The translations under genes and the position numbers were made by a program. The notes below the pieces were generated by a model. It did not search any database. It was given only the letters and a program-made list of their open reading frames with translations, and was not told the DNA's origin. DNA of 64,000 nucleotides from an uncultured virus (IMG/VR IMGVR_UViG_3300035180_003568) (Duplodnaviria; Heunggongvirae; Uroviricota; Caudoviricetes). Location: IMG/VR virus record IMGVR_UViG_3300035180_003568, one strand, 5' to 3'. Shown piece by piece: positions 31,777 to 57,058 of the stretch (within the stretch, counting starts at the first letter, position 1; each line of letters begins with the position of its first letter).

Positions 31777-32422
31777 TTGCCAAACTCTTGTTCATCTTGC
31801 CAGTTATTTTCAAGACCATTTTCTTCCATTTATAAGAAAATTAGAATGTTCAATATTAATATTGAACATTTTCTTGGGAAAAAACATTGGCTAGGTTCTA
31901 TTAAATCTAGCAAATCTTTAGATGAGATATTAATTGAAAATAGCGACTATTCATGTACTTCAAGATTAAAGGATATTTTAATTAAAAATAATATTCTTTA
32001 TAATTCTTGTTACGAATGTAAGCTTGGTACAACATGGAATGGTAAAAAAAATATCACTTCAAATTGATCATATCAATGGTATTAGATCTGACAATAGAAT
32101 TGAAAATTTAAGAATTTTATGCCCTAATTGTCATTCTCAAACAGAAACATTCTCTGGTAAAAATGCCAGAAAAATTAAATTTTGTAGCTGTGGAGAAACT
32201 ATAAATAGAAGGCAAAATAAATGTAAATCTTGTTCTAGCATATGTAAAGAGAAAATAATTTGGCCAACAACTAAAGAACTTATAGAAATGATCCTAAATA
32301 TGGGATATCGACCAACTTGTCGAAAATTAGGAGTTAGTGATCCATCAATAAGGCGAAGATTAGAAAATCAAGGAATTGATCCCAAATTAAATAATCTAAA
32401 AATTTATTTCAAAACATTGTGA
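31777..32422 (+). pseudogene. tRNA-adjacent HNH homing endonuclease, frameshifted
   Basis: LDEILIENS...CYEC...WNGKK joins ISLQIDHING...NLRILCPNCHSQT across an A8 run at about 32044-32051. Confidence 0.75.
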
Positions 32423-32490
32423 TCTTTATGAGATTCGAACTCATCTCTTTCCTTTTAGAGAGGAAGGCACCACCACTATACCAAAAGATC
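32420..32490 (-). tRNA. Amber suppressor tRNA (anticodon CTA), copy 2
   Basis: Acceptor GATCTTT/AAAGATC, anticodon arm TTCCT-CTCTAAA-AGGAA, T-arm ATGAG-TTCGAAT-CTCAT; CCA not encoded. Confidence 0.85.
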
Positions 32491-32533: not shown

Positions 32534-32609
32534 TGGTTCTTCCGGTGGGACTCGAACCCACGACCAAGATATTTAGAGGATCCTGCTCTAACCACTGAGC
32601 TACAGAAGA
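32534..32609 (-). tRNA. Amber suppressor tRNA (anticodon CTA), copy 1
   Basis: 76 nt; acceptor TCTTCTG/CGGAAGA, D-arm GCTC/GAGC, loop CTCTAAA, GTGGG-TTCGAGT-CCCAC, encoded CCA. Confidence 0.9.
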
Positions 32610-32887: not shown

Positions 32888-33229
32888 TTATGTTTTGAAT
32901 GCCAATTTAATTTGTGAGACCATTTTTTTTGTTAAAGGGCTGGGCGCTATACATATAGCAGTTAGCTCGCCATTAAGATCTGGTTCATAAAAATTAGAAT
33001 AAGGTATATCTAAATTATTAGCTTTTTCACACAATTCATTTAATTCATTTTCCGTTTTTACACAAAGTAAGCATATATAATTTGAATTATTATACCAATC
33101 TCTATCAATCTCGGGATGATCGTTTGCGAATTCTCTTAATGCATGGCATAATTGTGAAGCTTGCTGACCAAATGTTAAATCTTCTCTGGTGATAACATAC
33201 AACTTATCACCTTCTTTAATCTACGTCAT
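32888..33229 (-). CDS. Peptidyl-tRNA hydrolase (Pth2-like) with in-frame TAG at codon 3
   Basis: KLYVITREDL..GQQASQLCHA...FYEPDLNGELTAICIAP; reading frame begins ATG ACG TAG ATT AAA at 33229. Confidence 0.82.
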
Positions 33230-33231
33230 AA

Positions 33232-33606
33232 TCATTCCCCTTTCAACCAGTTTTCGATCTTTTCCAAAGACCACCAACCATTCTTTATTTCATATTCCGG
33301 CACATGCTGATGCACAATCTCAAGAATTAATTTAGCCTTGGGCTTGTTATCTTCTCGGCAACGTTTTTCCAAAAGCAAATACGAATCGCCACGTAAAAAC
33401 GCATAAGCTAACAAGTGATGGCGCGCATCAATACTCACCAAGCGCTTGCGATGAGATAAACTCCAAACGACTTTATCCGACTTACTTTTCAGTAGTCGGA
33501 CTCTAGCTCGCTTGGCTTCAACCGCCAAGCCCTTAATCTTACCAATCAAACAGAATTTTGAATTATTACCGTAGATTTCATGACGAGCAAAAACATTAGT
33601 ATTCAT
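33232..33606 (-). CDS. Conserved-looking basic phage protein of unknown function
   Basis: GAGGTG SD before ATG 33606; KIKGLAVEA...ARHHLLAYAFLRG. Confidence 0.75.
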   Translation of the reverse strand: MNTNVFARHEIYGNNSKFCLIGKIKGLAVEAKRARVRLLKSKSDKVVWSLSHRKRLVSIDARHHLLAYAFLRGDSYLLLEKRCREDNKPKAKLILEIVHQHVPEYEIKNGWWSLEKIENWLKGE

Positions 33607-33632
33607 AATACACCTCATAAAAAGTCAAAACA

Positions 33633-33704
33633 TCAAACAATAGATTGAAGATAACTTTTACAAGGCGGAGCCCGTGAACGGTTCTATAAGAAATTATTTT
33701 TCAT
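33633..33704 (-). promoter_or_regulatory. Leader peptide MKNNFL[TAG]NRSRAPPCKSYLQSIV with SD-sequestering hairpin
   Basis: GAGGA SD 8 nt before ATG 33704; TAG 33686-33684; RAPP 33674-33663; stem 33667-33652 pairs with 33627-33611. Confidence 0.7.
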
Positions 33705-33879
33705 TCAATACTTCCTCAAAATGATTTTCTAGTTCTTCTTTTAACTCGGCTATTTCAGCCTCTTTTTTACAGTCACATTTTTTGTTAATTACTACGGTTG
33801 TAGGCGCCCACTCATCATTTGAGTAGTAGTTACAATCATGGCAATTCCCGTTACATTTTTCGTATTTTACATACCACAT
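33694..33879 (-). CDS. Small Cys-rich hypothetical protein
   Basis: 61-aa ORF. Confidence 0.5.
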   Translation of the reverse strand: MWYVKYEKCNGNCHDCNYYSNDEWAPTTVVINKKCDCKKEAEIAELKEELENHFEEVLNEK

Positions 33880-33897: not shown

Positions 33898-34211
33898 TTA
33901 TTCCTTGCTGGTTAATTTTTCTAATAATGCGCGAGGATTTAAGAGTTCTTTTGGTTTTTCATCATCTAACACCTAGGTTACATGATCTGTAGTCCCCGGC
34001 AAATAATGTTCAAAATGTAACATCGTGGTTCCATTACCTTTATCTTTTTTAAGAACAGGAACAATGGTTGCAATGACATCACCTTCTTTTACTCGCACGC
34101 CTTCAGTAAGGTATGAAACAGGCATAAGTTCACAATAACCTAAAGCTCCTGATGCCCCTCAATAATAATTGAGAATGTTTCATTCCACCAAGGAGAGGGT
34201 GGTGTTGCCAT
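33898..34211 (-). pseudogene. M23-family peptidase remnant
   Basis: SPWWNET...GVRVKEGDVIA...MLHFE...LLNP; 5' truncated, one frameshift and an internal TAG at 33975-33973. Confidence 0.6.
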
Positions 34212-34274
34212 AATATTATGGGTAGATCTCACCAGCGTCAATGTCTGTAGATAATATCATTTTGTTCTTTGAAC

Positions 34275-34346
34275 AGAAACTGCTTTGCAAAAAGAAACTG
34301 CTTTGCAAAAAGAAACTGCTTTGCAAAAAGAAACTGCTTTGCAAAA
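34275..34346. repeat. Perfect tandem repeat, 4 x 18 bp (AGAAACTGCTTTGCAAAA)
   Basis: Direct reading; no spacers. Confidence 0.95.
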
Positions 34347-34417
34347 TTCAATTAATTGTCAGAAAAAGATTGCCATACTGACTGCATATCAGTGGTGGAG
34401 CTGTTGGTAAAAATTTG

Positions 34418-34771
34418 TGGAGCTGTGCGGTACTGCCCCGCAGTCCAAAACAGTCTAAATTAATATTCTTTCACAGATATAGTCAATTTCAATGTAATTG
34501 ACAACATTTCATATGATTTGCCATATGATAGCTAGATTCTGTTAATTTCATTTTCATGCCCGAAACCAGCATGAAAACTATCTTTGGTGAATTATACCCT
34601 GAGAGTTACTAAAGATACCTTACGTCAGGATATCCATTAAGCAGCTAGTGCTACTGGAGCAAATGCATTATCGTTAGCATTTATACGTTGATTGTGTTTT
34701 TAACCCGGTGATACAACCATCCGGAATCTGCATATTAACTCTTCGTGCTCTGTCGAATCTGTGTCAACCCC
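34418..34771 (-). ncRNA. ssrA: tmRNA (one-piece), tag ANDNAFAPVALAA
   Basis: 5' GGGGTTGACACAGATTCGAC, acceptor GGGGTTG/CAGCTCC with G3:U, resume context ATAAAT-GCT AAC GAT AAT..., tag ending LAA-TAA. Confidence 0.93.
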
Positions 34772-36199: not shown

Positions 36200-36991
36200 T
36201 TAAAAACTTTCATGTCTAAAAATATCCGCCCCATTCTTAAATATATTAGATAAGAATGATTGGTCTTTGGTAAAGATTGGTAAATCATGATTAACAAACC
36301 ATTTATTTTTCATGGTACCGTTAACAACTTTTGGAATCTTATAGCAAGCCGATCCTCGCTTATATGAAGCTGAATAGTCATTAAAATCAATATTACACTC
36401 TTGCCGCAACAGATCTACCTTTTCATCTATGCTTAATCCGGATAACATTTCTTTGATGGCGTTTTTGTCGTAATTTTTCTTTAGAAGCTCATAAAAACAC
36501 GCAAATTGAATTGATGTTTGAAAATTTTGCTGTTGCTTGAAAACCAATGCATTAGTAGCCTCTGCAATATTTGGGACTGCAAATACTTGTGTAATAAAAA
36601 TAGGCTCTCCAAGCAAATTCAGATCAATTGCATTAGAACAAGTATTAAAATGCATTGTGGCAATAGCTGATACTGCGGAACATATTTTTTGAATTTTATT
36701 ATCATACCAAGGGCTGGTATCAATACTCTGATCGTTACGGATGGCTAAAGTAATTTCATCATTATGCTGATACGCAAAAACCGCACCATCAATATCTGAA
36801 CAAAGCTTAAGCATGGTTGAAAACATACATTCGGCAAATTTTGGACAAAATGGCTTATCCAAAAGAGAAGTATTTTTGGAAAAAGAGCGCCCATTAACAT
36901 TGATAATTAATGGAACTTTGGGCAAAAGTCTAGTATTTGACGATTCTGAATAAGAATCGATTCTGTCTTTTAAAGATATAGCCATGTACAC
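36200..36991 (-). CDS. tRNA(His) guanylyltransferase Thg1-like protein
   Basis: PLIINVNGRSFSK, AYQHNDEIT, WYDNKIQK, YKRG. Confidence 0.85.
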   Translation of the reverse strand: MYMAISLKDRIDSYSESSNTRLLPKVPLIINVNGRSFSKNTSLLDKPFCPKFAECMFSTMLKLCSDIDGAVFAYQHNDEITLAIRNDQSIDTSPWYDNKIQKICSAVSAIATMHFNTCSNAIDLNLLGEPIFITQVFAVPNIAEATNALVFKQQQNFQTSIQFACFYELLKKNYDKNAIKEMLSGLSIDEKVDLLRQECNIDFNDYSASYKRGSACYKIPKVVNGTMKNKWFVNHDLPIFTKDQSFLSNIFKNGADIFRHESF

Positions 36992-46749: not shown

Positions 46750-48117
46750 TCAATAGCTATTTTTGATAAGCTCTAAGAACTTATCCAAGAAACTATTAGA
46801 CCAAGTTCCATCCTTTTTATTCTGAACGATGAAGTCTTTCATATTCTGAACTTTTCCATCGAACATTTGGAAGAACGGCGCTTGCCAAAGCGGTTTCCCA
46901 TTCTCTTGCGAGGACTTAAGTACCTTTTGAGCCAAAAGCGCAAAAGTCTTCTTATCACCTGCTTGAGTTAGGTCAGCCGCACCCTTGACTACTGTATAGG
47001 TCATATCATGATATTCAATCACTTTTCGCAAGCCGTCCTTGATTTTCAGCAAATTCTTTACAATTTCTTCCGGCAAGAATGGGATAACATCGTCATCCTT
47101 TTCTTGAAAGATTAATTCCAAACAATTTCGTTCTGAAGTGCCAAGAACTTCTCGTGTCCTATTGTACGCCACATAAGCCGCATTCTTGACTTTAACTCGA
47201 TTAAAATTAGAGTCTCGAACAACTACACCTTCATGTTCCATTGGATTTAGTGAGGACACCAAATCAATAAGTTCGCTGACAGACGTGTACGTGTACGCGT
47301 GTGCGATTGGAACACCAATTAGATTAAATGGAGCATCAACAAGTGCCGCCCCCACGTTTTCCTTGGTTTTGCCAAGAGAAACTAGATGATCTTTGATGTT
47401 TTTATCCAAATCATCATAAGCGACCCACTTCTTGGAAGTGCTAAGAAGCTGAAGATCAATTTCCTTAAAATCACCATACATGGATCGTGCTGCCAATAGA
47501 GTTACACGATTTTCAGTATAGTTAACAACAATTCTATTGTATGGAGTGGTGAGTTCGAAACAATACGTAACATTTTTGTTAAGCAATCCCGTATACGTGT
47601 CGAAATCTTTTCCAGAAGTATCTTTAAGAGCCTTTTCGAACAAAGTTCTGAACGTAAAGATACCATTATCCATGATAAGATCTGCTTCCGGTACAGATCT
47701 TGTTGCCACGCACCAAGCGTTAGTAAACCAATCATAATAAACAATACAAAGAGTTCCGTCCAACTTTTCCAATACGGCAAGGTTCGGATCAGACCAATTT
47801 ACATTAGCTGCTGCGCCCTGACCATAATTAAAGAACCTCTTCATTGGATAAGCCAAAACTTTAGTCTTGCCAGGAATTACGTCGTCAAAGTTTCTTTTAC
47901 CATCAACTTCGACGTGAGGATAAATGGAACCATCTTCCGATGAAAGGATAAGACCTCGGCATTCCTGCGCAAGAGGATCTGATTCTTGTGCTTCAAGTTG
48001 GTCGTAGTTTAGAGAGAACTTGTGACCTGACTTGGAAAAGGAAGCATACACACCGTGTTGCTCTCGCAATTCGCGTAACGAATGAGTTGCCAAAAAATCT
48101 TGAACTAAAAGGGACAT
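46750..48117 (-). CDS. T4 Rnl1-like RNA ligase
   Basis: ECRGLIL, RFFNYG, EKLDGT, FEL..P.NRIVV.Y, EGVVV, KVKN. Confidence 0.88.
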   Translation of the reverse strand: MSLLVQDFLATHSLRELREQHGVYASFSKSGHKFSLNYDQLEAQESDPLAQECRGLILSSEDGSIYPHVEVDGKRNFDDVIPGKTKVLAYPMKRFFNYGQGAAANVNWSDPNLAVLEKLDGTLCIVYYDWFTNAWCVATRSVPEADLIMDNGIFTFRTLFEKALKDTSGKDFDTYTGLLNKNVTYCFELTTPYNRIVVNYTENRVTLLAARSMYGDFKEIDLQLLSTSKKWVAYDDLDKNIKDHLVSLGKTKENVGAALVDAPFNLIGVPIAHAYTYTSVSELIDLVSSLNPMEHEGVVVRDSNFNRVKVKNAAYVAYNRTREVLGTSERNCLELIFQEKDDDVIPFLPEEIVKNLLKIKDGLRKVIEYHDMTYTVVKGAADLTQAGDKKTFALLAQKVLKSSQENGKPLWQAPFFQMFDGKVQNMKDFIVQNKKDGTWSNSFLDKFLELIKNSY

Positions 48118-48359
48118 TACCTTCCTCGCGTATAAAAGGACGCCATCAAAATTACAAATGCCGGGATAACCGACGCATAACTAAACGTTGAATCTCCAAA
48201 AGAGAAGCAAGTAGCCGCTGTAATTGGAAGAGAAGAAATCAAAAAGGCATGCATTCCTAGAAATGCAAACACCCCAACCAAAATCTTCCAGATTACTCCA
48301 CGAACCAGCAGTACATATAATCCTGTGGTTGCCAAAATCAAACTAATTCCCAGTGCCAT
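48117..48359 (-). CDS. Small membrane protein
   Basis: Three hydrophobic stretches; AGGA SD. Confidence 0.6.
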   Translation of the reverse strand: MALGISLILATTGLYVLLVRGVIWKILVGVFAFLGMHAFLISSLPITAATCFSFGDSTFSYASVIPAFVILMASFYTRGR

Positions 48360-48733
48360 GATTGATCCTCGGGACTTGCGCCCCTCCTATGAATGTTAAA
48401 AGTTCCCAGAGGGAATTTATGAGATTGTTTGGCGACTCTTACGAGTCGGGCTGCGGAGCGTTTGGGCTCAATTTACCGAGCAATAACAGCCGCTCTTTCT
48501 TACAAGATAATCATTGGCGCAAGGTTGTCAAACAGAAAAATGGCGGACAATTTTGAAAATTGTCGCCATATTCATCATTCATATCTGCGCAATACAAACT
48601 CTTCTGTGTGAGTTTCTTGGGCATGATTCACATGACCCATCATCACGGTCACTTGGAGTTTTTTTGATAAGCGTTCTCCTATGGACGCATATAATTATCT
48701 TTGAGCATTGTATTCATAAATGGTTCTTTCATA

Positions 48734-49114
48734 TTACTTCTTTCGTTTTATCTTAATATTCTCAATTTTAGCCGCCAAATCTCTCATCAATTCTTCTTGA
48801 GGAGAAATCTTTGGAGGTAAAACAATATCATCATAATATAAATCTATAATATCAACAACATCAAGCTTTCTGAATATTGCCCTAATTTCATCTTCCTTTT
48901 CATCATACTCGATATCAACCTCATTAGTTTGAGGCTTTTCTTCAAGAATTTTAAGTCTTTTAGAGTCAATAAGATCTTTTATTCCAACTTTAAGTTCTTT
49001 AAGAGCTTTTTGAAAATTTTTCTTTTTAAGAGACAAAATCTCATCTTTTGATAATTTTGTCTCTTTAAGATTTATATATTCTACTTTTAATATAAGAGTG
49101 CTTCTCATGTCCAT
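48734..49114 (-). CDS. Hypothetical protein
   Basis: 126-aa ORF. Confidence 0.55.
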   Translation of the reverse strand: MDMRSTLILKVEYINLKETKLSKDEILSLKKKNFQKALKELKVGIKDLIDSKRLKILEEKPQTNEVDIEYDEKEDEIRAIFRKLDVVDIIDLYYDDIVLPPKISPQEELMRDLAAKIENIKIKRKK

Positions 49115-49284
49115 GTTCTTTTTCTTTTTCTATTCATGCATAGAATAAATTAATATTTGTTCTTGTTCATAAGAAAATTTACTAGGTATTTGATTTGATC
49201 TACAATTCTTACATATAGAATTTTGTTCTATAGCACGTTCTTTTGAAGATGGAGATTGGTAAGTAATCTCCATATATTGATATA

Positions 49285-50220
49285 TTAGAAACTAGCTTCG
49301 GGATTATTTACTCTAAATAATGGAAGTCCATTTTCATATACCCATTTACATACTTGTAGCCTGTCATCAAACCAACCTGCAATATAATATTTATCCATAA
49401 TTTTATTTAGAAAAATTTCTTCTTTAATAATTACATCTTTTCTTTTATCTCCAGTTTTGCGCATGAATAATTCATATTTAACTTCTGGAAAGAATTTTTG
49501 ATAAAAACGTTCTGTTGGTTCACGATCTTTTTCTTCACGACCAGAAACAAAAAGTATTTTATATCCTGCATTAAAATATAATTTCATACATTCAATAACA
49601 TGTTCATGAGGAAGATCCTCATCACACGTACTTGCATCATATGGGTTTCTGCCCGAATGTATTAATGATATAGTTCCGTCATTATCAAATACAACTGCTC
49701 GCGGCAAAGAAATATTCTGTTTAATCTGCCGCATATTATTTACATTACCAAAATGTTTGCTAAATATCTCAACGCGCGGTTTGTAGAACTTAAACTGCTT
49801 TCCTCCAGATTCCTTCCACCACTTCTTGATAACATCTTCGCCAACCTTTGCCTTACCTTCTCTTTGAGCATCACGAGCTATTGCTTCGTCAATTTCAATA
49901 TAGAAAGCTTTTTCTAGTACTTGAGCCTCAACGTTTGCCGATTTAACGATATCACAAACCGTATCGAAATGTCTGCGGTTAAGATTGAGGTTATCAATAA
50001 TGACATTTTTGCCGCGCTTCAAAGCGTCTCGAAGAAGATAATTACGAGCATCCGTAATCATCTTTTCATAGTCAGCAGACCAAACAGATCCATTCATCAT
50101 CGCGCGCAAATCATCATTATTGATGCGAACCCAGTTATTTGGATCTTTAGCAACTTCTAATTTGGCATATGAACTCTTCCCAGAGGCAGGAATACCAACT
50201 AATAAAATAACTTTCAGCAT
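49285..50220 (-). CDS. Polynucleotide 5'-kinase/3'-phosphatase (T4 PseT-like)
   Basis: GIPASGKS, RINNDDLR, HAD FDNDGT, SGRE, FDDR. Confidence 0.9.
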   Translation of the reverse strand: MLKVILLVGIPASGKSSYAKLEVAKDPNNWVRINNDDLRAMMNGSVWSADYEKMITDARNYLLRDALKRGKNVIIDNLNLNRRHFDTVCDIVKSANVEAQVLEKAFYIEIDEAIARDAQREGKAKVGEDVIKKWWKESGGKQFKFYKPRVEIFSKHFGNVNNMRQIKQNISLPRAVVFDNDGTISLIHSGRNPYDASTCDEDLPHEHVIECMKLYFNAGYKILFVSGREEKDREPTERFYQKFFPEVKYELFMRKTGDKRKDVIIKEEIFLNKIMDKYYIAGWFDDRLQVCKWVYENGLPLFRVNNPEASF

Positions 50221-51202
50221 AATTTTTCCTCGATTTTTATCTTAATAAGACTTTTTACATAGTTAATTGATGGAATATCTGTTCTTACAATTTTTATATT
50301 ATTTTTTATTAATTCTTTTTCTATAAAAGAAAAAAGATCATTATATTCTACTGAATATGGTATGCGAATTAATTTTACATTATTATTAATACAATTAGTA
50401 TCTTTTAGCCTATCTAAGTTTTGTCGAATCGCTAATCTATTTTTAGATTTGTCAAAGCGCATTACTTGAGAATGTTGTGGTCCATCATACTCAAAAGCAG
50501 TGCATAATTTACTACAATATCCGTCTAACTGTAATTTCCTATTAGTTATTGGGTTAATATTCCAATCTTCTCTACTTTGCGCCCATATTTCTGATGTAAA
50601 AAATTCAAATATAAATCTGCAAATCTCTTCTTTAAGAGAAGAGAAACATTTAGAGCATCCATGACCTTTTAATAAAGAAAATGGAGCGATTTTAAATAGT
50701 CCGTGCGCCTTACATATTACAGATATCTTAGTTTTGCTATTAATATAGTTAACTAAACTAAAATCATATTTTGGAAAAATAATTTTTACCTTTGCAATAA
50801 ACTCTTCTGTTGTAGGTTTATATACATTTTTACATTTTGAACATCCATGACCAGATAGTAAATCTTGTGGAGAAATATGAAAATCTCCATGAATATTACA
50901 TGTAATTTTAACTTTGGTTTTATTATTAACAAATAATGTATATTCGTACGAATACAATGGAAAAACAATTTTAGCTAAGTCAATAAACTCGCTATTTGTT
51001 TTTCTATATTTTTTGGAACATTTAGGGCAGCCGCGCCCTTTTAGTAAATCATGTGGCGTAATAAAGAAATTATCATGAAGTTGACAACCAACATTTATTT
51101 TTACAAACGCATTTACATAATTTACATTATCGTAAGATAATGCTGGTTTCACTAATTTTGCTTTTTCTATGAATTGTTCTGTTGTTAATTTTTTTTACTC
51201 AT
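50214..51202 (-). mobile_element. Free-standing homing-endonuclease-like gene (zinc-ribbon repeats + PD-(D/E)XK domain); N-terminus frameshifted at A8
   Basis: Three T.EFI...Y....Y......I.C..HG.F...P..LL.G.GC.KC repeats; LQLDGY...AFEYDGPQH; ATG 51202 is out of frame with the long ORF. Confidence 0.75.
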
Positions 51203-51212
51203 ACCTATATGT

Positions 51213-51296
51213 CTAGATATGTATATTAATCTCTGCCTTTGCCCAGGTCGATTTGCCGGACCCAGGAATTCCAACAGTTAAAAATACTTTAATCAT
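51213..51296 (-). pseudogene. Orphaned 5' end of a PNK gene (MIKVFLTVGIPGSGKSTWAKAE...)
   Basis: Walker A fragment matching the N-terminus of 49285-50220, cut off by the endonuclease gene. Confidence 0.8.
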
Positions 51297-51358
51297 TTTC
51301 TTTCTCGTTTTCTGATGTTCTTGGAGGCTTAATTATTATTGGAAATTCCAATTATCTG

Positions 51359-52294
51359 TCATTTAAAGAACCACGATTGATCATAATACTGAATACCTGC
51401 TCGTGCCGCAAAAGTCTTATCAGTCGTCATATCCCCGACGAAAATCGAGTCTTTGCGAGATAGTTTATGTTTGATCATAAAATCAACGAAGAGACCAGTT
51501 TGTGGTTTGCGACAATAACAACTGATTGGAGCTGATTGATGAGGACAGAACTTATATTCAATATCCAAACCAATTAACTTATTGGTATGCTGAAATAGTT
51601 GGTGACATTTATCAAGCGTTAACTCTCCTTTATGCACGCCGCTTTGATTTGAAATGCCTAACAAAAGATACCCCTGACTCTTATAATAATCAAGGACTTT
51701 TTTTACATTAGGTTTAATCTCGATCTGATCTTCGGAAACAGGAAATTTACCATTTCCATTAATGCACTCGCGCAACGTTCCGTCGTAATCTACGATTAAA
51801 GCCTTTTGAGTGAAGGTTGGATCGTCTTTACGAACAAACTTGAATGTCTCAACCTTGGAGAAGCCTTCTGCCACATCAGGCTTCTGAAACTCTTTCTTGT
51901 ACTTAAAGAGAACTGTCGGCGGGAAGATGTTGGTATGTTTCGCCTTTTTGATTTCTTCGGGAGAAGGAAACTTTCCAATTAAGGAGAAGGCTCGCTGCAC
52001 AACGTTGAAAGTGCAATCTTCAATCGACGTCCCCATCAATTTACAATCTACCTCGGCGCCGTTTGCCTTCGCCATGTCAAGGAACGGCTTGCGAACTTCT
52101 ACAGTTGGGAATAGATTATCTAAAACTACATCCTTGCCACTTTTTAGCAGTGCTTCGAATTTAGGGAGTAGCCCTGCAATAGTTCCACCTTCTGTGTCCC
52201 TATTAAGAGCGATAAATCCTTGATCTGTAAGTTTCTTAGTAAATGTAGACTTTCCAGAAGCAGGCGCCCCACATACCATCGTTACTTTTGCCAT
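51359..52294 (-). CDS. Kinase + HAD-IIIA phosphatase (PNKP-like)
   Basis: GAPASGKST, LNRD, DYDGTL, SNQSG, CRKP, GDMTTD. Confidence 0.88.
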   Translation of the reverse strand: MAKVTMVCGAPASGKSTFTKKLTDQGFIALNRDTEGGTIAGLLPKFEALLKSGKDVVLDNLFPTVEVRKPFLDMAKANGAEVDCKLMGTSIEDCTFNVVQRAFSLIGKFPSPEEIKKAKHTNIFPPTVLFKYKKEFQKPDVAEGFSKVETFKFVRKDDPTFTQKALIVDYDGTLRECINGNGKFPVSEDQIEIKPNVKKVLDYYKSQGYLLLGISNQSGVHKGELTLDKCHQLFQHTNKLIGLDIEYKFCPHQSAPISCYCRKPQTGLFVDFMIKHKLSRKDSIFVGDMTTDKTFAARAGIQYYDQSWFFK

Positions 52295-55930: not shown

Positions 55931-57058
55931 TCATTTGATCAATGACTGTTCAATCAAATTAATGCATAATTTATCTATCTTCTCGCGATCAGGAGAATGT
56001 GGGAGAATTTTGCAAGAATTGTAAAGTTCATTCAACTGAGCGTCTTCAGTATCAGCAAATTCGATTAGACGATCATATGTCCACGCCCCGTTTCTAATGG
56101 CAAGTAGCTCTTCTCTGTCTGGTCGTTTTACAATAACTTTCCCAGTCGTTAAAATTTCTCGACACATTCTGATTAATCGAACTAAATGATAAGCATGCTT
56201 GGTGTCATATCCAAACTTAGCTTCAAGAGCGGCTCTTTTTTCATTACGATTTTTCCTCCACTCTTGATATTTATCCCACTCTTTCTTGGAGTTAACATAA
56301 GCTCGTTCTTTCTGCATAATCTCCACAAAATTATCGTTTAGACCAATTTTGCGAGCCGCCGCCATCCAGTGTTCATCCGAAGTGATTTTTAGTTCACCCA
56401 ACATATCTGACATAACAGAACGAATGTTAATCTTGGCAGATTCTTCTAATCCTTCCATAAAGTCAAATTGAAATCTATCTAATTCCTTCTGGATCTCGGC
56501 TTGAGCCGCCAATAACTGATCTTTTGGAATCTCCGGTTGCTTTGGGAGCCCTAAACTTTCTCTGGTTGGAAGTTCAGTTGGAGGATTTAATAACCATCTA
56601 CGATGGAGCTTGATTCTATGCAACTGAGAAACTGCATAACCAGTAAATGTATGTTTTATTTTTTTAGATAGGAAAATATCTTTATTCTCTAATAGGGTCC
56701 TACCCAAAGGTGAAACTACAAAATGATCATCATCTGATGTATGCAATACCTCAATGATATTAGGATTGCAGTCTGATGCAAGGTTAATGAATTTTCTAAC
56801 ATCATAAACTACTGCGTCTGGATCTGGTGCTTTTAATTCTGCTTGCTCGAAACGCTTAAAACTGCTAAAAAAATATTCTTTAGGAGGAATAGTTACTCCT
56901 TTAAAGTCTTCGTCAGAAGTATCTGTGTTCGTACCATAAGCGTGGGATCCATGACGGACCAAAAGAATAGTTCGGTCCGTAATCCATGAAATGTTTTGGC
57001 TGCGCTTAGCCATCAAGTCTAATACTGGGTGTGACATAATAATTAATCTTTCTGACAA
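55931..57058 (-). CDS. Pol-beta-superfamily nucleotidyltransferase (RlaP/YcgL-like); start uncertain
   Basis: HGSHAYG..T.TSDEDFKG, NPNIIE, YDTKHAYHLVRL, LLAIRNG. Confidence 0.85.
   Translation of the reverse strand: MSERLIIMSHPVLDLMAKRSQNISWITDRTILLVRHGSHAYGTNTDTSDEDFKGVTIPPKEYFFSSFKRFEQAELKAPDPDAVVYDVRKFINLASDCNPNIIEVLHTSDDDHFVVSPLGRTLLENKDIFLSKKIKHTFTGYAVSQLHRIKLHRRWLLNPPTELPTRESLGLPKQPEIPKDQLLAAQAEIQKELDRFQFDFMEGLEESAKINIRSVMSDMLGELKITSDEHWMAAARKIGLNDNFVEIMQKERAYVNSKKEWDKYQEWRKNRNEKRAALEAKFGYDTKHAYHLVRLIRMCREILTTGKVIVKRPDREELLAIRNGAWTYDRLIEFADTEDAQLNELYNSCKILPHSPDREKIDKLCINLIEQSLIK

Follow-up and report, generated by a model that had tools for sequence, protein, structure and literature searches.

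An amber-interrupted leader with a conserved Arg-x-Pro-Pro motif as a candidate translational switch in an uncultured phage and its relatives

RESULTS

A short leader ORF lies upstream of gene A

We examined a 64,000-nucleotide stretch of DNA from an uncultured virus of the Caudoviricetes (IMG/VR record IMGVR_UViG_3300035180_003568), referred to here as the window. Our subject is a short open reading frame (ORF) on its minus strand, the leader, which carries an in-frame amber codon (TAG in the DNA, UAG in the RNA) followed by codons for Arg-Ala-Pro-Pro (RAPP) and lies upstream of a gene that we call gene A. We consider this leader a candidate translational switch. The features at the locus are as follows.

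33713..33717, minus strand: GAGGA, a Shine-Dalgarno (SD)-like site 8 nt 5' of the leader ATG, from reading of the sequence
33633..33704, minus strand: leader ORF, MKNNFL-UAG-NRSRAPPCKSYLQSIV-UGA, from reading of the sequence, with a design conserved in 34 of 35 distinct upstream regions
33684..33686, minus strand: in-frame amber codon (the gate), with Leu (TTA) before it and A after it
33663..33674, minus strand: CGG GCT CCG CCT, encoding Arg-Ala-Pro-Pro, a candidate arrest core from sequence, with the arrest mechanism taken from excerpts of PMC10951233
33652..33667, minus strand: 5' arm of a stem predicted by folding (the anti-SD), starting inside the Pro-Pro codons
33611..33627, minus strand: 3' arm of the predicted stem, containing the GAGGUG SD (33616-33611) of gene A
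33232..33606, minus strand: gene A, 124 amino acids (aa), isoelectric point (pI) 9.9, with its ATG at 33606 behind GAGGUG and an invariant RHHLLAYA motif; no known family
33694..33879, minus strand: 61-aa ORF, MWYVKYEKC..., whose last codons overlap the leader ATG out of frame

The initial annotation of this DNA had described a mini-ORF with an amber codon upstream of RAPP and a GAGGA site before it, and we read the leader in the same way at 33704-33633 (minus strand; ATG AAA AAT AAT TTC TTA TAG AAC CGT TCA CGG GCT CCG CCT TGT ... TGA). The RAPP codons also form the G+C-rich island noted there, with 10 of 12 positions G or C in surrounding DNA of ∼34% G+C. With termination at UAG the leader has 6 codons; with read-through, a stall is expected at codons 13/14, with RAP-tRNA occupying the P site on CCG and Pro-tRNA occupying the A site on CCT. 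The earlier proposal that a RAPP-type motif is an arrest core agrees with published mutagenesis: RAPP and RGPP are given as the strongest arrest cores, tolerant of context and refractory to elongation factor P, and RDPP and RSPP as partially permissive cores that are also depleted from proteomes (PMC12992588, in its excerpted text). In the window, the RAPP core lies near the C-terminal end of its small ORF, the position at which such R-A/G-P-P or permissive RSPP/RDPP cores are looked for.

The 64-kb window contains a single ATG..TAG..RxPP frame, and 0.15 per window were expected from Markov-shuffled sequence (maximum, 3). Since the pattern in the window alone is near chance, the reality of the leader rests on its conservation in relatives. 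The leader matched no Rfam family, and no terminator-like site was found near it on the minus strand. A blastn search with 4 kb around the leader matched only HNH and tRNA fragments. Contigs from two public sequencing runs match 33465-33879 with zero differences, one run being possibly the source sample.

The leader design is conserved across distant relatives

A search of viral and metagenome contigs for gene A yielded 59 loci, several of which were the same contig found twice. Adding the window and requiring at least 120 nt of sequence 5' of gene A left 51 sequences, among which 35 upstream regions were distinct (that of the window and those of 34 relatives). The gene A proteins of this set are diverse, with a median pairwise identity of 46% and 22 clusters at 70% identity (10 at 55%).

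The arrangement M-x(2-7)-TAG-x(3-6)-R-x-P-P, in one frame and uninterrupted by TAA or TGA, was present in 34 of the 35 regions when the nearest in-frame ATG was counted; an earlier in-frame ATG in 7 regions would extend the leader to as many as 13 codons before TAG. The in-frame TAG was kept in all 35. The Arg residue was likewise invariant although encoded by six different codons (CGT, 21; AGA, 5; CGC, 4; CGG, 2; CGA, 2; AGG, 1), Pro-Pro was present in 34 of 35, and residue x between them was Ala in 22, Gly in 9, Asp in 2, and Ser in 2. The Arg and x codons varied at position 3 (entropy, 1.57 and 1.99 bits), and positions 1 and 2 had entropies of 0 to 1.1 bits. Nothing was conserved 3' of Pro-Pro, where a stop codon follows immediately in 10 of the 35 regions. 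As the Arg and x codons are for the most part outside the helix predicted below, base pairing does not explain their conservation. This pattern points to selection at the peptide level on the segment after TAG and suggests that the segment is translated.

Spacing was also constrained. The distance from TAG to Arg was 3 codons in 26 regions, 4 in 7, 5 in 1, and 6 in 1, and the end of Pro-Pro lay 46 to 57 nt from the gene A start in 33 of 35; the nascent chain at the expected stall would have 10 to 15 residues. The residue before the leader TAG was Leu in 27 of 35 regions. The base after it was a purine in 32 of 35 and never T, compared with a purine after 11 of the 30 ordinary TAG codons that terminate long ORFs in a related contig (Fisher, 3.7e-6). 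Suppression is helped by a 3' purine. We considered, and rejected, re-initiation at a start-like codon after TAG, as ATT stands there in only 20 of the 35 regions and the codons in the others are not start codons.

Upstream of the leader, a promoter-like motif, AATAAC-N-GGATATATAA, was observed 5 to 25 nt before the leader ATG in most relatives (at about 2870-2890 in relative L002); a motif so close to the ATG means that some leaders would be nearly leaderless. A homologue of the 61-aa ORF occupies the same place in one relative (L001) and is absent from most others, which have the promoter-like motif directly before the leader instead. The window itself has only a degenerate version of this motif, located before the 61-aa ORF, and no repeats of it elsewhere (2 loose matches, compared with 0.52 expected).

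The Pro-Pro codons are predicted to sequester the gene A SD

In the minimum-free-energy fold, positions 33667-33652 pair with 33627-33611 in a stem of 16 pairs with one bulge, in which GAGGUG is buried. The stem proposed in the initial annotation, of about 16 bp with one bulge and burying GAGGTG, is identical to the minimum-free-energy structure of both the 76-nt fold (−16.9 kcal/mol; z, −2.2; 4 of 200 shuffles as stable) and the 126-nt fold (−25.5 kcal/mol; z, −1.86; 11 of 200 shuffles as stable). The 71-nt segment from the Arg codon to the gene A ATG had a z of −3.14.

The set was folded over the same interval, which begins at the Arg codon and ends at the gene A start, for 34 leaders; relative L020 is not among them, as the interval chosen for it did not include its SD. 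In all 34 folds the SD was predicted to pair with the Ala-Pro-Pro codons at a probability above 0.5 (median, 0.99), so that in each case an ORF of the same direction stands upstream of a gene whose ribosome-binding site (RBS) is predicted to be held in a stem. The mean z was −3.0, and z was below −2 in 27 of the 34. The Pro-Pro codons, CCT CCT in most leaders (the first proline is CCT in 33 of 35 and the second in 28 of 35), complement the AGGAG(G) RBS of gene A and are thus themselves the predicted anti-SD. For the 11 leaders that could be aligned, RNAalifold returned exactly the CCUCCU:AGGAGG helix. On a MAFFT alignment of all 34 it returned no structure, because the middle cannot be aligned and the inner stem-loop differs in every lineage.

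In the subclade of the window, the SD reads AGGUG, and its partner is CGCCU in the window and CACCU in relatives L008 and L020. The window is the only one of the 35 leaders with CCG as the first proline codon, and in L008 and L020 the CACCU anti-SD is shifted onto the Ala codon GCA. The partner thus changes to match the altered SD, which amounts to one informative change. Taken together, the elements on which the initial annotation built its model recur in the relatives: TAG in 35 of 35, R-x-P-P in 34 of 35, and pairing of the RBS with the Ala-Pro-Pro codons in 34 of 34. Three further features had escaped that annotation: the two tRNA(CUA) genes of the window, the amber codon early in the gene after gene A, and the identity of the Pro-Pro codons with the anti-SD.

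Gene A encodes a basic protein of predicted helical fold

The gene A proteins are uniformly very basic (pI, 9.6 to 10.4; net charge, about +12), and the AlphaFold model (predicted local distance difference test score, 87.5) is all helical, with a long helical hairpin and small helices. There was no match to gene A in Pfam or PHROG, none between PDB sequences and the family profile, no Foldseek match to the model at an E value of ≤0.001, and no usable match in the protein Atlas. VIA-align of the model returned generic helical hairpins only (best Z, 7.3). The homologues of gene A fall into 368 clusters, all unnamed. A tblastn search of 50,697 GenBank phage records gave no match, and hence no cultured phage with gene A was found. 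Being very basic and helical, the protein may bind RNA.

In run X1, one contig joins 33223 to 33389 with 464 other letters between them. We take this contig for a co-occurring strain that has other sequence in place of, or separating, gene A's 3' part and the beginning of the next gene, described below.

Neighbouring genes carry an early amber codon and lie beside suppressor tRNAs

Downstream of gene A, on the same strand, are the following features.

32888..33229, minus strand: peptidyl-tRNA hydrolase 2 family (PTH2)-like gene (Pfam PF01981, 37.3 bits against a cutoff of 23)
32534..32609, minus strand: tRNA with anticodon CUA (amber suppressor), 76 nt, with encoded CCA and discriminator A (ARAGORN)
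32419..32490, minus strand: second tRNA with anticodon CUA, 72 nt (ARAGORN)

The PTH2-like gene of the window begins ATG ACG TAG ATT AAA GAA GGT GAT AAG, with an amber codon as codon 3 (33223-33221). The copies in L016 and L003 matched PF01981 at 48.8 and 43.5 bits, and a phmmer search of PDB sequences with the PTH2-like protein found nothing. A start of the form M-x-(x)-TAG, with TAG at codon 3 or 4, was found in 34 of 35 distinct relatives. The TAG precedes a conserved KLY(I/V)(I/V)xRxDL by 2 to 6 codons (once by 9), and 13 of 34 genes lack any alternative canonical start. Standard gene calling in the window would give a truncated gene that starts at an internal TTG (33202).

Many relatives carry a third gene, of ∼189 aa, between gene A and the PTH2-like gene; TAG is its codon 3 or 4 in all 17 distinct copies (3380-3946 in L002, 3388-3954 in L003, and 15 other loci), and the gene is absent from the window. 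It carries a YHDCGKP (HD-like) motif and has no Pfam match. Three GenBank "huge phage" assemblies (LR756500, LR756501, and LR756504) lack gene A and have a PTH2-like gene that starts M-x-TAG; in 2 of the 3, tRNA(CUA) was found in the available flank.

Both tRNA(CUA) genes of the window, ∼1 kb downstream of the leader, have no long variable arm and have discriminator A, as drawn by ARAGORN. One or two copies of tRNA(CUA) lie downstream on the same strand in 17 of the 21 distinct loci for which at least 2.5 kb was available. The leader, the PTH2-like gene, and (in relatives) the third gene thus appear, from their sequences, to be a small amber-dependent set beside suppressor tRNA and transfer-messenger RNA (tmRNA) genes.

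The window uses the standard genetic code and is not a stop-codon-recoded genome. TAG ends 5 ORFs of at least 100 aa in the window, none of 5 ORF pairs is joined across TAG, and ATG-x-TAG starts are not enriched. For this comparison we used same-frame continuation in place of crude six-frame coverage; in a 472-kb relative, continuation was found at 13 of 222 TAG, 33 of 329 TAA, and 28 of 468 TGA codons. As there is no excess of continuation across TAG, read-through would be a property of this module and not of the whole genome. A search for the Gp23 capsid family, made to look for recoded late genes in three related records, gave no match, and the controls likewise gave none.

The wider region is rich in tRNA-related genes

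Two more features lie upstream of the leader.

34415..34771, minus strand: tmRNA gene (Rfam RF00023, 88 bits; missed by ARAGORN)
33898..34158, minus strand: remnant of an M23-peptidase-like gene, with TAG at 33975-33973 and repeats at 34216-34344

The window covers an early/replication region with DNA polymerase, a gp46/47-like nuclease, rIIA/rIIB, polynucleotide kinase, RNA ligase, and Thg1, and comes from a large T4-like or jumbo phage. Within it, the minus strand carries a translation island of two tRNA-Thr genes, the tmRNA gene, the M23-peptidase-like remnant, the leader, gene A, the PTH2-like gene, and the two tRNA(CUA) genes, with tRNA-Arg(CCU) farther away. A tmRNA gene is also found upstream of the module in relatives. 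Genes for tRNA repair and maturation (RNA ligase, two polynucleotide-kinase-like genes, a nucleotidyltransferase, and Thg1) were observed at 46750-52294, 55931-57058, and 36200-36991 (minus strand), and the part of the genome around the leader is, more widely, tRNA centred. It is a matter of conjecture that suppressor tRNA, tmRNA, and peptidyl-tRNA hydrolase together manage side effects of read-through.

In the M23-peptidase-like copy, TAG replaces the Trp of all 11 relatives (HVTW(V/I/L)LD), and the residues after it are still conserved. The copy is also frameshifted farther upstream and preceded by a tandem repeat, and for these reasons it may be a pseudogene rather than a read-through gene.

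DISCUSSION

A model of the leader as a read-through reporter

We think it likely, on comparison of the leaders and their predicted folds, that the leader is a translational switch that reports UAG read-through through a RAPP stall that unmasks the gene A RBS. The UAG would probably be read by the phage's own suppressor tRNA. Frame, motif, complementarity, and spacing are conserved, and tRNA genes are linked; from these observations we infer the following course of events. Ribosomes would initiate on the leader at its SD-like site. When release factor 1 (RF1) wins at UAG, a 6-residue peptide would be released, and the CCGCCU...:...GAGGUG helix would stay intact with the gene A RBS buried, as geometry and folding suggest; a terminating ribosome would not reach the stem because UAG lies at least 3 codons 5' of the Arg codon. 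When a suppressor tRNA, likeliest one of the two phage tRNA(CUA), reads UAG, the ribosome would advance 6 codons and arrest on RAP|P. The arrested ribosome would occupy the Pro-Pro codons, that is, the anti-SD, and the SD 40 to 50 nt downstream would be freed and gene A translated. Given established ribosome footprints, a ribosome at UAG would stop short of the anti-SD, and one stalled on Pro-Pro would cover the anti-SD and leave room for a 30S subunit at the SD.

Gene A could possibly be translated many times per stall. The stall may last, since nothing outside the tunnel can pull on so short a peptide. One read-through event could license many initiations, which would make the leader a sensitive latch, and the directly gated PTH2-like gene would respond proportionally.

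Several points weigh against this model. Stalling, read-through, and switching are all deduced from aligning and folding sequences, and the pattern in the window is, on its own, near chance. One relative, L038, has R-D-P-T in place of R-x-P-P, with its TAG kept. A chain of 10 to 15 residues is very short at the stall, and the stalling of such chains is a prediction; a minimal RxPP motif is reported to be sufficient, with upstream residues modulating stalling, but residues N-terminal to RxPP can also abolish it (PMC10951233, in part). The five core pairs of the helix are invariant in the 11-sequence alignment and so give no covariation support. Conservation of CCUCCU would also be expected of an anti-SD acting purely as RNA and is ambiguous between selection on peptide and on RNA. 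The PTH2-like gene of the window could also start at the internal TTG at 33202, behind AAGGTG, and some amber-independent synthesis from this copy is therefore possible. No tRNA(CUA) was found in the available span of 4 of the 21 loci. The physiological logic of the switch stays conjecture, as gene A matches no known family or function.

Alternative explanations

A first alternative keeps the RxPP stall and the SD unmasking unchanged and differs in what is sensed, namely, RF1 activity or read-through by a host tRNA instead of a phage suppressor tRNA. An infected-cell state with weak UAG termination and a host that carries a suppressor are examples. The L016/L017 lineage bears on this directly, because it keeps both the leader (with RDPP) and the amber-gated PTH2-like gene, and yet ARAGORN found no tRNA(CUA) anywhere in its 472-kb contig, nor did Rfam find any tRNA in 140 kb around the module; in all, 4 of 21 loci had no tRNA(CUA) in the available span, and the reader of UAG therefore need not always be phage encoded. 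The contig (472,749 bases; L060-L083) is uneven, however, with G+C climbing from 0.38 to 0.55 and all six of its tRNA genes in the G+C-rich part, and it may be chimeric or carry an atypical tRNA, though it is rated 100% complete. In 17 of 21 loci, and with two copies in the window, tRNA(CUA) closely follows downstream on the same strand, which also speaks for a phage tRNA. We regard sensing of RF1 or of the host as unlikely to be the better account; it and sensing of the phage tRNA are not exclusive, since the output always depends on the suppressor:RF1 ratio.

The leader could also be an RNA-only device, an SD-sequestering hairpin whose anti-SD reads Pro-Pro by accident, behind a short upstream ORF (uORF) that always ends at TAG, with no translation of what comes after the TAG. 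Such a helix works in any frame, and CCUCCU is the exact and nearly invariant complement of AGGAGG. We nevertheless find this account improbable, because the Arg and x codons, mostly outside the helix, are conserved as amino acids with free third positions; the Arg codons cross the CGN/AGR divide, and x is limited to Ala, Gly, Ser, and Asp. TAG also stays in frame with RxPP in 35 of 35 despite a spacer of 3 to 6 codons, with no TAA or TGA interrupting, and an RNA-only device leaves both the invariant choice of TAG as the stop and the TAG at codon 3 or 4 of the neighbouring genes unexplained.

Full reassignment, in which UAG is a sense codon and the leader a constitutive RAPP arrest peptide whose release is controlled otherwise, seems to us marginally less probable again. 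It would account for the phage tRNA(CUA) genes and for in-frame TAGs in three genes of the module, but a mere sense codon would be swapped for synonyms, and TAG is invariant in 35 of 35 leaders while its neighbours vary. In-frame TAGs are, moreover, limited to the leader or to codon 3 or 4 instead of being spread through genes, and ORF continuation across TAG shows no excess in the window or the 472-kb relative, with 5 window ORFs of at least 100 aa ending at TAG. Chance co-occurrence without function, for which one could cite the single frame per 64 kb at an expectation of 0.15, is already contradicted by the same design in 34 of 35 distinct regions from 22 clusters at 70% identity and deserves practically no weight.

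Comparison with known regulatory leaders

Excerpts of three papers (PMC7897499, PMC10951233, and PMC12992588) describe arrest peptides of the RAPP/RGPP kind, including ApdA, ApdP, ApcA, SecM (with RAGP), and uORFs of Streptomyces lividans. The phage leader resembles them, as far as these excerpts go, in having an R-x-P-P core that ends a small uORF, in the same allowed x (Ala and Gly strong; Ser and Asp weaker), and in having a downstream gene as output. It differs from them in being phage encoded, in having its putative arrest core behind an in-frame UAG so that it would be reached only by nonsense suppression, in Pro-Pro codons that double as predicted anti-SD, and in a downstream gene that is not localisation machinery. 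The words "phage" and "stop codon" do not occur in PMC12992588. Monitoring substrates of Sec or YidC (SecM, MifM, VemP, ApdA, ApdP, and ApcA) are a class to which the leader does not belong, as it has neither a signal or membrane segment nor a downstream localisation gene. Pulling by Sec or YidC cannot release a stall on a peptide of 10 to 15 residues without such a segment.

The gene for release factor 2, prfB, is autoregulated by an in-frame UGA and a +1 frameshift. The leader is like prfB in that an early in-frame stop would gauge termination efficiency, and unlike it in that RxPP lies in the zero frame, with no frameshift, and that a separate downstream gene would be controlled through SD unmasking. 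The bar minigenes of phage lambda are ORFs of two or three codons linked with the biology of peptidyl-tRNA hydrolase. The opening ATG ACG TAG of the PTH2-like gene resembles them; unlike in bar, the residues after this TAG are conserved as protein and run on into the enzyme, which makes read-through rather than drop-off its likely purpose.

Attenuators such as trpL and hisL sense charged tRNA; in their leader peptides, and in TnaC, sensor codons report one decoding activity and alter downstream RNA structure. The phage leader shares with these attenuators (trpL, hisL, and tnaC are named in the excerpted PMC6412442) the use of a few leader codons to gauge a decoding activity; its sensor would be a stop codon read by a suppressor, and a programmed arrest instead of alternative hairpins would turn the gene on. 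Engineered TAG-in-leader switches were built on the tna and trp leaders by Liu, Qi, Yanofsky and Arkin (2011; as cited in part of PMC6412442). There, too, a leader TAG ties downstream expression to an amber suppressor tRNA; according to the same partial account, those switches are engineered and act on transcription termination, whereas the phage leader is natural, would use an RxPP stall, and would most likely act on translation initiation. In the full-text literature searched, with subscription journals outside its coverage, no amber-gated arrest leader or amber-gated PTH2-like gene was described.

Implications

We put forward more tentatively, and with some doubt, that the module is a closed-loop controller, in which the leader-controlled gene, the PTH2-like enzyme, and (in relatives) the third gene would be made in proportion to UAG read-through and then act back on it. 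To feed back, the proteins could, for example, hydrolyse or deacylate what the suppressor tRNA produces, bind tRNA or the ribosome (basic gene A), or oppose RF1. If this is true, a closed loop would keep read-through at a safe level in a genome where TAG still serves as a stop, and the set of sensor and effectors would be a regulatory intermediate for a phage evolving towards full stop-codon reassignment.

Arrest peptides so far sense export, antibiotics, and metabolites, and natural read-through of a stop codon as the input would be a new class of signal. It would also mean that an RxPP core works, or at least is selected, in a peptide of 10 to 15 residues. With about 100 nt and one tRNA, the system is compact and directly testable, and synthetic circuits for reporting amber suppression may gain a natural part from it. 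For the phages themselves, the finding bears on how suppressor tRNAs are controlled by those that carry them, on why phages with a standard code carry them, and on how stop-codon reassignment may evolve without wrecking the proteome.

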